Position numbers and translations under genes: made by a program. From Candidatus Versatilivorator sp. (GTDB lineage: Bacteria; Acidobacteriota; Terriglobia; Versatilivoradales; Versatilivoraceae): DNA of 64,000 nucleotides. The stretch spans positions 2,400,001-2,464,000 of the forward strand of contig OZ242296.1 in NCBI GenBank assembly GCA_965207735.1, written 5' to 3'. The notes under the pieces were generated by a model that made no database searches, had not been told where the DNA came from, and saw nothing but the letters and a program-made list of their open reading frames with translations. This document shows, piece after piece, positions 8,201 through 11,469 of this stretch (positions are counted from its first letter, which is position 1; the number at the start of each line of letters is the position of its first letter).

Positions 8201-11200
8201 TGAATCGCCTGGAATTTCTAAACCTGGCACACAACTCCTTGATGAACTTACCTGAGGGGGTCTTCAGCGGGCTGAGCAGCCTGGAGCATCTGGACCTTTC
8301 CGGCAACTCCCTAACCAACTTGCGGAAACGAATCTTCGGCGAACTCACTGAACTGAAACGGCTGAACCTGACTCGCACCTCCCTGACCGATTTACCCGAA
8401 GGCGTTTTCGACGACGTGCTCGATACGTTGGGCAGGCCTTACCGGTTCGGCAGACAAGACAATCAGGGAGGTCTACTGTTGGACCCCGACCTGCAGGCCA
8501 CACTTGCCTTCCTATGGCCCGAGCAGACGGCCATGGCAGGAGACGAGGTCAGTGTGACTGTGTCCTTGACCCGTCCATTGCCGGTCTCGCTTCGCGTCCC
8601 CTATACATTGCATGTAGCCGGCGGCAGCGGGGCGACCGACACCATGACCGAGCTGTCTCCCTCGCCGCCCGACCAGTTGCTGATTCCAGCCGGAGAAACC
8701 CGCGGCGATATCACTTTGACCCTCGAGGGGAACATCAGGCCGGGCGACACCGTCGTTTTGAGCCTGGGCGAACTCACCGAAATCGGACTGCGCCGATCCG
8801 ACGGCGAGGGGAGCGACGCTCCCTATCTGTGGACCGCAGCTCTGCTGCGCATGCCGATTACAAGAGGTCCACATTTGGTCATCCTGGCCAGCGCGGCCGC
8901 GCAGGGAGGCTGCGACCGAACAGAGCCCGTCCGTGACAGGCTGATGGAGATTGCCGGAGTTGCGGACTGCGAAGAAGTCACTGCACAGCATCTGGCCGGC
9001 GTGAGAGAGCTGGACCTGACCCGAGCCGGCATCAGCAAACTCCACTCTCGCGACTTCCACGGCCTGGTCAATCTCGAACATCTGAACCTCAACGGAAACT
9101 CCTTGGCCCTATTCCCGAAGGGGATCTTTGATGAGCTGCGTCGTCTGGAGTCCCTGAACCTGTCCGGCAATCCCCTGGAATCCTTGCCGGAGGAGCTTTT
9201 CCGCGGGCTCGGCAGCCTGAAAGTGCTGACAATTTCCCAGGAAGTCCATCCCAATCGCCTATTGACCCACTTGCCGGAACGTCTCCTAGCGGGACTCGGG
9301 AGCCTGCAGATTCTGGACCTGTCTCGCAATGCCCTGAAACGATTGCCGGAGCAGATCTTCAAAGGGCTCGCCAAGCTGGAATATCTGGATCTTTCCGGTA
9401 ATGTCCTGGCTGACTTGCCAGCGGGAATCTTCAGAGGGCTCAGCCAAATGAAACACCTCGACCTGTCTGGCAACCAGTCAAGTAGGCACGTTCTGAACCG
9501 CCTGCCGAAGGGAATCTTCGACGACCCGCTCGAAACCCTGGGCGGTCCTTACAGGCTGGATGGAGAGATCCATCAGGGACAACTCCGCTCAAGCCTGAGG
9601 ACCACGCTCGATTTCGCTGCCTCCGGACAGACAGCACGGCAGGGGGGCGTCGTCAAAGCCGCGGTCACCTTGAACCGGGTGTTGCCGGTGGCCGTCCGCG
9701 TTCCTTATTCCATCGGCGGCACGGCGACGGCTGACGCCTACACCGGCCTTTCGCCTTCGCCCTCCGACGGCTTGCTCTTTCCCGCGGGAGAGGTAAGACG
9801 CGACATCGTCTTCACTCTCTTGAAGGACACCCCCAGCCAAGGGGAAACCATCACGTTGACTCTTGCCAAGCCCGCTCAAGTCCGGCTGCGTCCTTCCGAG
9901 GGGACAGGGATTGACGCTCCCTATCTGGGCTTGGATACCTTTACGCACCCCGACCGTATCGACGAAAAACCCACCCATGTCGTCACTATTTCCGAGGCGG
10001 GCTCGGGTGACCCGGATCAAGGGCGGGCCCTGTTTGTCCCGGTCATTCTGACCGCGGCCGGACGCAACAACTCCTTCTTTACCTCGGAACTGACCGTGAC
10101 CAACCGGGGTTCCGAGCCGGCACTCCTCAACTACAGCTACACGGCGGATGCAGGCGGGGGAAGCGGCACGGCCACCGACAGGCTCGACGCAGGTCGGCAG
10201 AAGATCGAGATCGACGCCATCGACTATCTCAGGAGGCTGGGGATTCCCATTCCCGCAACCGGCAATCGGATCGGGACTCTGAGAGTGGACGTGTCGGGGT
10301 CTTTCGGAGTGGGAGTCATGGCCAGGACCGCCACCGCCGTACCCGAGGGCCGCGCCGGACTGGCCTATCCGGGGGTTCCGGGGGAGGAGGGGTTCCAGCA
10401 AGCAGTCTATTTGTGCGGCCTCAGGCAGAACAGCCGCGACCGTTCCAACGTGGCCTTCCAGCACATGGGGGCTCCGGGAGAGGGGGCGATCACGCTGCGG
10501 ACGACGGTGTATTCGGGGGAGGCATCCGACGCCAGCCCCCGGGTGCTTGAAGATGTCAGGCTCGAGCCGGGAGGGTTCCACCAGTACTCGGGCCTGCTGG
10601 GCAGGGTGGAGAACGGCTACGTGAGGGTGGAGCGGGTGGAGGGAGAGGCGCCCTTCTACGCCTACGGAGTGATCAACGACCAGGTGAACTCGGACGGGTC
10701 GTTCATCTTTCCGGTGACGGCCGGATCCCTGGAGGGGAAGACGAGTCAGACTTTGCCGGTCATCGTGGAGACCAGCGAGTTCAGGAGCGAGCTGACGGTG
10801 ACGAACTTCTCGGAGGAGCCCCGGACCCTGGATTTCGAGTTTGTGGGCGAGCAAGTCGGGACCAACGACAGGACGGCTGCCTTCAGCATGGAGTTGGAAT
10901 CCGGCCAGCAGGAGATCGTCCCCGAGGTTGTAGAGGAGCTGCGGCGCCAGGGAGTGGCGGGGCTGGGGGCGACCCGGGGTTTCTACGCGGGTCCGGTGTT
11001 CGTCACGGCGGAAGAGGGAGACCTGAGCGGGATCGTGATCGGAGCCAGGACAGGTTCAAAAGGCGGTGGTGGGCAATACAGCGTCTTCTACAACGCGGTG
11101 CCGGACGGTGAGGCATTCGCCCAAGAGGCCTGGGTGGAGGGGCTGCAGCAGAACGAGGAGAACCGGAGCAACCTGGCGCTGGTCAACACGGGAGAAGTGG

Positions 11201-11469
11201 ACAACAGCGACAGCATCTTTCATCTGGAGATCTTCGACGGAGAGACGGGGATGCTGGTGGAGACGGTGGTGACCAGGCCGATCCCGGCCCGGAGCTGGCA
11301 TCAGATCAACGGGATCCTGGGCAGAGCTTCTCCGGAGACCAGCCAGGGGTATGTCCGGATCGAGAAGGTGTCGGGTGCCAACCCGTTCCTGGCCTACGGG
11401 GTGGTCAACGACGGCGGGGCTCCGGGAGAGAGAAGCGGCGACGGAGCCTATATCCCGGCCCGCGAATAG
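5245..11469 (+). CDS. Giant secreted protein: 4 x (Cys N-cap + leucine-rich repeats + Calx-beta-like domain) plus conserved C-terminal module
   Basis: N-caps GICDRT/GVCDRT/GICNRS/GGCDRT; about 32 repeats of LxxLxLxxNxLxxLPxGxFxGL; Calx-beta-like V.V.LSRPLPVAVRVPY...GLLFPAGET; signal peptide ending TTAAA-Q. Start placed at MKKLH (ORF track extends to 5197). Confidence 0.85.
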   Translation: MKKLHRSDTEEPAPNPSPHRSRTAISRHRRGLNRVWTTLLVLTLPTTAAAQGICDRTPEVQNVLMNVTGVRPCGEVTARHLSVVRTLSISASGRLSLQAHDFEGLTGLKTLAFGGPSVSLPRGVLDALAGLESLYLNFGNVETRRWPEGIFQGLGQLKRLELSLRHPGNLPAGVFDGLGSLEYLDLNFNHQASLPAGVFVGLGGLKHLDLSHNYLTGLPVGIFRDLGSLVTLNLSSNQLTYLSEGIFDGLVSLENLNLSTNSLIGLSAKVFDGLSSLKGLGLHFTDLTRLPEGIFDDVLDTLGGPYTFAGSTGEGQLRLDQRLWSTLAFPWTEQIVSAGEAVKVTVVLSRPLPVAVRVPYALGGTAPLEAYTDLSPSPSHGLLFLAGETRKEITFTLQQRARPGDTIVFTLGKEIRLRRSDGTGPETFLLGGMFYLRDTAHTVSVDKPVQPGVCDRTPEVRDQLMQIAGVSNCKEVAATHLAGVTELNLRQSHVGSLLTHDFRGLVNLENLSLAYCSLANLPKGVFDGLSNLKRLELEANQLIYLPEGSFDGLGNLEYLNLWQNDLTHLPERIFDGLSSLKWLGLRENQLSRLPEGTFDEVLDTLGGPYAFSGETFQGDLVLEPALKATLNFSSDEQVVSEEDTVTVTVVLGKPLPVAVRAPYAVSGSEASELFTDLSPSPSDGLLFPAGETHREITLALNKTARQPGAIVLTLGGLSEIELLRSDGTGAEAPYLESGVLIDDAFEGSTHTVIVTAPAAQGICNRSPQVRDHLLLNTGISGVSNCWEVTAAHLAGVRGLTFSSFSGITEFQSDDFRGLSGLIELSLQEIPLTSLPVGIFDELISLKKLNLFRNSLTSLPEGIFDSLVSLEYLDLAGNSLTGLPEGVFDRLGRVKELKLNGNPLTSLPVRIFSGLGSLEYLGLNETFLTSLSDGIFDGLSRLESLDLWTNSLTALPVGIFEELSNLKTIQLVNGPLTHLPARIFEGLNRLEFLNLAHNSLMNLPEGVFSGLSSLEHLDLSGNSLTNLRKRIFGELTELKRLNLTRTSLTDLPEGVFDDVLDTLGRPYRFGRQDNQGGLLLDPDLQATLAFLWPEQTAMAGDEVSVTVSLTRPLPVSLRVPYTLHVAGGSGATDTMTELSPSPPDQLLIPAGETRGDITLTLEGNIRPGDTVVLSLGELTEIGLRRSDGEGSDAPYLWTAALLRMPITRGPHLVILASAAAQGGCDRTEPVRDRLMEIAGVADCEEVTAQHLAGVRELDLTRAGISKLHSRDFHGLVNLEHLNLNGNSLALFPKGIFDELRRLESLNLSGNPLESLPEELFRGLGSLKVLTISQEVHPNRLLTHLPERLLAGLGSLQILDLSRNALKRLPEQIFKGLAKLEYLDLSGNVLADLPAGIFRGLSQMKHLDLSGNQSSRHVLNRLPKGIFDDPLETLGGPYRLDGEIHQGQLRSSLRTTLDFAASGQTARQGGVVKAAVTLNRVLPVAVRVPYSIGGTATADAYTGLSPSPSDGLLFPAGEVRRDIVFTLLKDTPSQGETITLTLAKPAQVRLRPSEGTGIDAPYLGLDTFTHPDRIDEKPTHVVTISEAGSGDPDQGRALFVPVILTAAGRNNSFFTSELTVTNRGSEPALLNYSYTADAGGGSGTATDRLDAGRQKIEIDAIDYLRRLGIPIPATGNRIGTLRVDVSGSFGVGVMARTATAVPEGRAGLAYPGVPGEEGFQQAVYLCGLRQNSRDRSNVAFQHMGAPGEGAITLRTTVYSGEASDASPRVLEDVRLEPGGFHQYSGLLGRVENGYVRVERVEGEAPFYAYGVINDQVNSDGSFIFPVTAGSLEGKTSQTLPVIVETSEFRSELTVTNFSEEPRTLDFEFVGEQVGTNDRTAAFSMELESGQQEIVPEVVEELRRQGVAGLGATRGFYAGPVFVTAEEGDLSGIVIGARTGSKGGGGQYSVFYNAVPDGEAFAQEAWVEGLQQNEENRSNLALVNTGEVDNSDSIFHLEIFDGETGMLVETVVTRPIPARSWHQINGILGRASPETSQGYVRIEKVSGANPFLAYGVVNDGGAPGERSGDGAYIPARE

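Follow-up and report, generated by a model that had tools for sequence, protein, structure and literature searches.

Two otherwise unrelated giant proteins of Candidatus Versatilivorator sp. end in the same module of about 480 residues. Both are encoded in the window, that is, the whole stretch of 64,000 nucleotides analysed here (GCA_965207735.1, contig OZ242296.1, positions 2,400,001 to 2,464,000), and the module recurs behind many kinds of cargo elsewhere in the genome. It is real, widespread and uncatalogued by curated families; it is not a new fold, nor a signal of the kind that a type IX secretion system (T9SS) uses. Judging by analogy, we see an even chance that the module acts as a one-chain pseudo-tetramer which holds on to a sugar polymer in the cell's own envelope, so that dozens of exported proteins are tethered non-covalently.

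The first of the two proteins (5197..11469, plus strand) has a signal-peptide-like N-terminus, leucine-rich repeat (LRR) blocks and module A at its C-terminus; its length of 2090 aa is counted from the first TTG, and the real start is probably slightly downstream. The second (43830..49175, plus strand; 1781 aa) combines a signal-peptide-like N-terminus with an M12B metallopeptidase, fn3, NHL propellers, IPT/TIG and module B. Module A has 479 residues (10027-11469) and module B 487 (47709-49175, plus strand). Aligned end to end they share 291 identities over 490 positions (59%; E=0.0), and the cargo of the two proteins falls in separate similarity clusters (E<1e-10), in agreement with the initial annotation, which had proposed a common C-terminal module of about 480 aa on two unrelated proteins. 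Its view of the module as a tandem of two halves of about 240 aa also stands, since units 1 and 2 of module A are identical at 72 of 222 positions, with the refinement that each half is itself made up of two domains. Unit 1 of module A (10027..10731, plus strand) comprises two beta-sandwich domains with conserved N26, R100, R139, N141, Q186, D218 and D223, and contains the segment 10381..10725 (plus strand); unit 2 (10738..11469, plus strand) holds domains 3 and 4 and runs up to the stop codon. The units of module B lie at about 47709-48431 and 48438-49172.

The strong DNA similarity noticed over the last 90 nt was confirmed (79/90 identical). Nucleotide identity is 87% in the final 29 codons against 63% in the remaining 450, in large part because the protein itself is conserved there (26 of 29 residues); even so, third positions of identical residues match more often in this end (21/26) than elsewhere (138/264). 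Neither module has a transmembrane tail, the best 19-residue hydropathy values being 0.99 and 1.29, and the chains finish in charged or polar residues with a model of four sandwiches, so that the absence of both a membrane tail and a terminal aromatic barrel residue was correctly read. Modules A and B and the unit profile gave no match in Pfam, NCBIfam or PDB sequences. The closest entries in the Atlas were unnamed Acidobacteriota clusters (0.97-0.98).

Far more than two copies exist. In the same genome 40 open reading frames (ORFs) match the module, 36 with the full module and four with fragments, all of them ending at most 16 residues from the stop codon and together covering 3.7% of the genome. 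Pfam families were matched in 30 of the 34 N-terminal parts scanned, and the cargo includes LRR, NHL, fn3, cadherin, Spondin_N, GSDH, sulfatase, S8, M9, M12B, trypsin and SBBP. The cargo is unrelated in 480 of 630 pairs of modules, and modules 85-90% identical were found behind cargo without mutual similarity, which bears out the idea of a constant domain onto which varied secreted cargo is shuffled and suggests recent shuffling or conversion. No 19-residue window exceeded a hydropathy of 1.6 in 38 of the 40 modules, and none had a hydrophobic tail. Three related cargo regions fused to the module (L027:1-1278, L030:1-1119 and L031:1-699) had no Pfam match at 0.01. In one copy the start of the module is joined to its last 35 residues or so, as by an internal deletion, and another carries a short internal duplication (L038:6889-7200 and L029:1090-2586). 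Several of the module genes are interrupted by frameshifts or adjoin transposases and reverse transcriptases.

The module was present in all 18 genomes of the same family, with 9-51 matches each, and the closest named records are from Ca. Versatilivorator, Terriglobia. The module query matched none of 12 genomes from other families of the class, and the full-module profile gave matches in 11 of 300 others across the phylum, where one or two copies of the unit stand C-terminally (in 21 ORFs and one more that a locus edge truncates). A restriction to one family was rejected as an effect of sensitivity, as the unit profile matched 77 of the 300 (one of them, G052, unpublished), or 78 of 301 with the own genome. 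These searches of other genomes, including that for sister subfamily C described below, score few candidates per genome, and their match numbers are not copy numbers. With its invariant residues retained, the unit reaches strong scores in at least six families of Acidobacteriota.

In a protein library clustered at 50% identity, 2414 clusters had the module. Among the best 150 of these homologues, all with two units, the module was C-terminal in 124, N-terminal in 20 and internal in six; 98 of the 124 C-terminal forms stop exactly at the module boundary. The N-terminal forms mostly follow directly upon a signal-peptide-like leader, two being apparently frameshifted and one lacking a start, and the end motif is intact in all 26 N-terminal and internal forms. 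An invariably C-terminal position, found in the 40 copies of the own genome, is thus not kept outside it. This freedom of position is our main result against a terminal sorting signal.

The module is predicted to consist of four small beta-sandwich domains, two in each unit of about 235 residues; the pairing within half-modules and the four-domain assembly are predictions as well. A single-domain model matched the TM1070/ASRT structures in Foldseek, with 12-14% identity in the structural alignments, and the whole 480-residue model gave non-specific multi-domain matches only (TM 0.09-0.19). TM1070 (Thermotoga, PDB 1NC7) and ASRT (Anabaena, PDB 2II7, Pfam PF07100) are members of the ASRAH superfamily (De Souza, Iyer, Aravind 2009, PMC2739507), and the modelled domains have the eight-stranded beta-sandwich of the TM1070 type. 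The Asn that is near-invariant in ASRAH at the end of strand 2 is present in domain 1 of 45 of 48 units and in domain 2 of 36. The Trp position at the start of strand 1 holds Trp in 14 and Tyr in 11 of the 48 units in domain 2; in domain 1 the column falls on a ragged alignment edge. The dyad and tetrad organisation of secreted ASRAH members also recurs, with two units in 150 of the 150 best homologues and one- and two-unit forms elsewhere. A single unit is predicted to homodimerise (0.87 against 0.00 for the control, subject to a caveat of likeness). The His/Cys signature of ASRT was not found, its register being occupied by Arg and Ala/Gly, and PF07100 matched three of 48 units weakly (best 3.7e-4) and nothing in the own genome. 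The module is likely a new family within a known superfamily, the fold itself not being new. An undescribed system had been proposed, and this holds insofar as no curated family covers the module; its fold matches a superfamily described in 2009. Acidobacteria are unnamed in the text of that paper, whose additional file with the member list may bear on prior notice.

More distant units were found in 18 further ORFs of the genome. In subfamily B the order of the two domains is swapped, and subfamily C is mostly N-terminal in this genome; each shows homology to the module unit, with profile probabilities of 96.6-99.2%. Subfamily C was matched in 47 of 120 further genomes of the class, many of them giving 17-24 matches, a distribution suggesting that different lineages multiplied different versions of a single device, placed at one chain end or the other. 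Its tetrads near the N-terminus, with LRR, propeller or peptidase-like cargo behind, are a mirror image of the module (L124:1685-4261; G000:C1 1527761-1530253, 4999990-5005134, 4003727-4007905 and 4021284-4025663). Other families of the class have near-identical versions of subfamily C (70-80%), a hint of gene exchange. A Matrixin-TIG protein whose tetrad is of subfamily B, with the domain order swapped, adjoins ftsZ (L119:3386-7306, G000:C1 400385-404305), and a counterpart of about 1300 aa was matched in most genomes of the genus. There are also short secreted proteins made up of little besides a single divergent unit, some followed by a small C-terminal domain and some not (L122:1495-2364, L123:2119-3363 and G000:C1 4936258-4937637). 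DUF5719 matched a sister-subfamily protein at 3.1e-5, under the cut-off.

The host cell is of the diderm type and has LpxC, BamA and three secretins, of which one lies in a locus resembling a type II secretion system (T2SS). In the anchoring model, the two units of about 235 residues would fold into four TM1070/ASRT-type sandwiches and close into the pseudo-tetramer. Cargo would cross the inner membrane by Sec and reach the surface by some further, outer-membrane route; the genome has the type II secretion locus. Clefts between the domains, bearing invariant Arg, Asn, Gln and Asp, would then grip an anionic glycan such as the O-antigen of lipopolysaccharide or a capsule. Such tethering would follow the principle of SLH and CWB2 repeats, but with four lobes where those have three, and in a cell with two membranes. 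Many of the signal-peptide-like stretches of module proteins are followed by Gln, a residue which, as in Bacteroidota, would permit pyroglutamate capping.

Several points weigh against this reading. A signal-peptide-like stretch was detected in only 20 of the 40 module ORFs, by a strict heuristic, and several of those that failed are broken at the 5' end and start in mid-protein after frameshifts. The conserved polar residues may serve the structure instead, with R100, D218 and D223 located at the predicted interface between units. By sequence, the tie to an ASRT member is a weak one (probability 5.3%, E 0.0074), and the binding of sugars or small molecules in the ASRAH cleft is itself a prediction only (PMC2739507). 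In the neighbourhoods read, the module genes had no conserved glycosyltransferase beside them, and a ligand on the cell and one outside it are not separable from sequence. Of the surface targeting or anchoring suggested by the initial annotation, anchoring remains the best reading, and the comparison made there with terminal sorting signals (T9SS CTD, PEP-CTERM) is not supported.

An alternative that we regard as unlikely is docking into an S-layer. The module would mimic a four-fold S-layer node, built of subunits that each have one domain with this fold, and would plug cargo into the lattice or share the S-layer's anchor and type II export. Right downstream of gspD, two paralogous secreted proteins of about 580 aa flank a DUF1573 gene (L125:3643-8366, G000:C1 2243642-2248365, minus strand). 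A position next to gspD is reported, in the part of the source available, for the S-layer protein Slr4 (p4, PMC7821379), and we take the paralogues as candidate S-layer proteins; an excerpt of another report calls Acidobacteriota S-layers ambiguous (10.1101/2024.05.28.596244). Their look-alikes in the Atlas, which are leads only, include clusters with Slr4 (16% of members, 0.89) and DUF5719 (25%, 0.88), and one of the 48 module units matches Pfam Slr4 (8e-5). The C-terminal domain of the paralogues, at about G000:C1 2246620-2247099 in one of them, is colinear with domain 1 of the module over 106 columns, a weak alignment (probability 11%, E 0.0027) that falls under any accepted threshold of homology. 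Against subfamily C it reaches 43%, with scores of 26-32 compared with at most 16 for 30 column shuffles, which are a lenient control. The unit also occurs in 11 of the 12 other genomes with this domain, against 77 of 300 overall, the 12 belonging to five families whose kin are not independent. However, the domain was found at E<=0.001 in none of five module-rich genomes of other families, for which reason we rejected it as an obligatory partner of the module, and the S-layer identity of the protein is itself only a candidate. No Pfam or PDB-sequence match was found for the domain.

It is also doubtful that the module is a folded export signal, recognised by the T2SS or another outer-membrane route that would release very large cargo, with anchoring secondary or absent. 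The module is present on seven of the 10 ORFs of at least 3000 aa and 15 of the 35 of at least 1500 aa, and the genome has three secretins. Four other giant proteins (1984-5797 aa; G000:C1 300815-318208, 2377780-2384406, 2766464-2772418 and 3362138-3378487), with cargo little like that of module proteins, end by eye in autotransporter-like barrels instead of the module, suggesting that module proteins lack a built-in outer-membrane route. Moreover, a gene for a secreted beta-propeller with a divergent dyad, a half-module, lies between bamA and skp, ahead of fabZ-lpxA (L118:5008-6795, G000:C1 2615007-2616794, minus strand). It directly follows bamA in 14 of 14 genomes of the genus, with skp next in 13 and one contig ending there, and is kept in three of five other genera of the family; G016, with a fragmentary bamA region, and G018 gave no full-length match. 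However, the dyad was not found beside bamA in any of four module-rich genomes of other families, and was rejected as a universal machine part. The five module-rich genomes gave only distant secretin matches to the gspD of the own genome (23-34% identity). Free chain position and stand-alone versions also argue against an export signal, and such a signal would hardly need a pseudo-tetramer of 480 residues, 60% conserved, in which polar residues are invariant. The module genes lie dispersed, with housekeeping genes, transposases, reverse transcriptases and further module genes as neighbours, and no dedicated transporter was seen beside them in the neighbourhoods read.

We consider improbable, as well, a one-fold display system of Acidobacteriota that would combine these elements. 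The T2SS would export a square S-layer with nodes of four single ASRAH domains, and hundreds of cargoes with tetrad or dyad copies of the node would dock into the lattice or compete for its anchor, the bamA-linked dyad being a housekeeping member.

The module may, with rather low probability, be an outward-facing lectin with host or biofilm-matrix glycans as its ligands, at which it would gather secreted enzymes and adhesins in the manner of a carbohydrate-binding module. Conservation of the unit with its invariant residues over at least six families favours instead a lineage-wide self ligand, and adhesin-type cargo requires a cell-side anchor and has no other. A cleaved terminal signal of the T9SS or PEP-CTERM kind, with an undescribed transpeptidase, would fit the C-terminal position of all 40 own copies, the homologues ending at the module boundary and the highly conserved last residues, but it is very improbable and largely refuted by the N-terminal forms, in which the end motif is intact, there being in addition no transmembrane tail, no adjoining transporter in the neighbourhoods read and no exosortase PF09721 in the genome (control matched). 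SprA and Por_Secre_tail gave no match in the genome, nor in the control genomes, and these T9SS searches are therefore uninformative.

In the window, the LRR gene lies between hslUV-like genes and homocitrate-synthase-like and ATP synthase genes (11557-18792), and a Fic-like ORF (50941-52401) follows the second gene region, all assigned by eye from translations.

Acidobacteriota are abundant and mostly uncultured, and what is at stake is their surface display of giant adhesins and enzymes. Our literature search, which had most subscription papers outside its scope, returned nothing on the module, Versatilivorator or DUF5719, and no account of such display on the two-membrane envelope of this phylum. 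If the module is an anchor, diderms would have an SLH/CWB2-like device of their own, the surface proteome of these bacteria would gain an immediate marker and the secreted ASRAH branch a first testable function, and the module could be put to use as a portable display tag. The genus is sponge-associated, which would link the module to the display of eukaryote-like repeat proteins in symbiosis.

Among known systems, CWB2 and SLH offer a functional analogy. According to the accessible part of one source, three CWB2 repeats stand at either end of 29 C. difficile proteins and are required for anchoring (PMC4973711). As far as that text goes, tandem non-identical repeats form one binding unit, at either chain end, on a large paralogous surface set (29 proteins there, 40 here). 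There is, however, no sequence relation, the module being without a Pfam match and SLH PF00395 not having been found in the genome (control matched in 4); the module has four beta-sandwiches against three repeats, in a diderm host with LpxC and BamA, and binding is demonstrated for CWB2, whereas for the module it is a proposal. The T9SS C-terminal domain and PEP-CTERM are similar in being constant C-terminal parts of many unrelated exported proteins. The module differs from the former in its length of 480 residues and in that the extreme C-terminal position is not obligatory (26/150), and from the latter in having neither a C-terminal transmembrane helix nor a detectable exosortase in its genome. 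Unlike autotransporters, it is modelled as four sandwiches and not as a barrel with a terminal aromatic residue. DUF5719 (PF18986) is its nearest named look-alike in the Atlas (0.94) and matched two of 48 units weakly in Pfam (best 1.7e-4), but the window modules are without a match and the Atlas row is mostly actinobacterial. As with Slr4 and its adjacent T2SS, the own genome has Slr4-like candidates directly after the T2SS, whose C-terminal domain may share the module fold; the link is a weak profile match only, and by architecture module proteins are not S-layer subunits. Compared with ASRAH members, the module has Arg and Ala/Gly where they carry the His/Cys signature and is fused to dozens of unrelated cargoes per genome, whereas the secreted families of that superfamily are amidase-fused or lipoproteins (PMC2739507).

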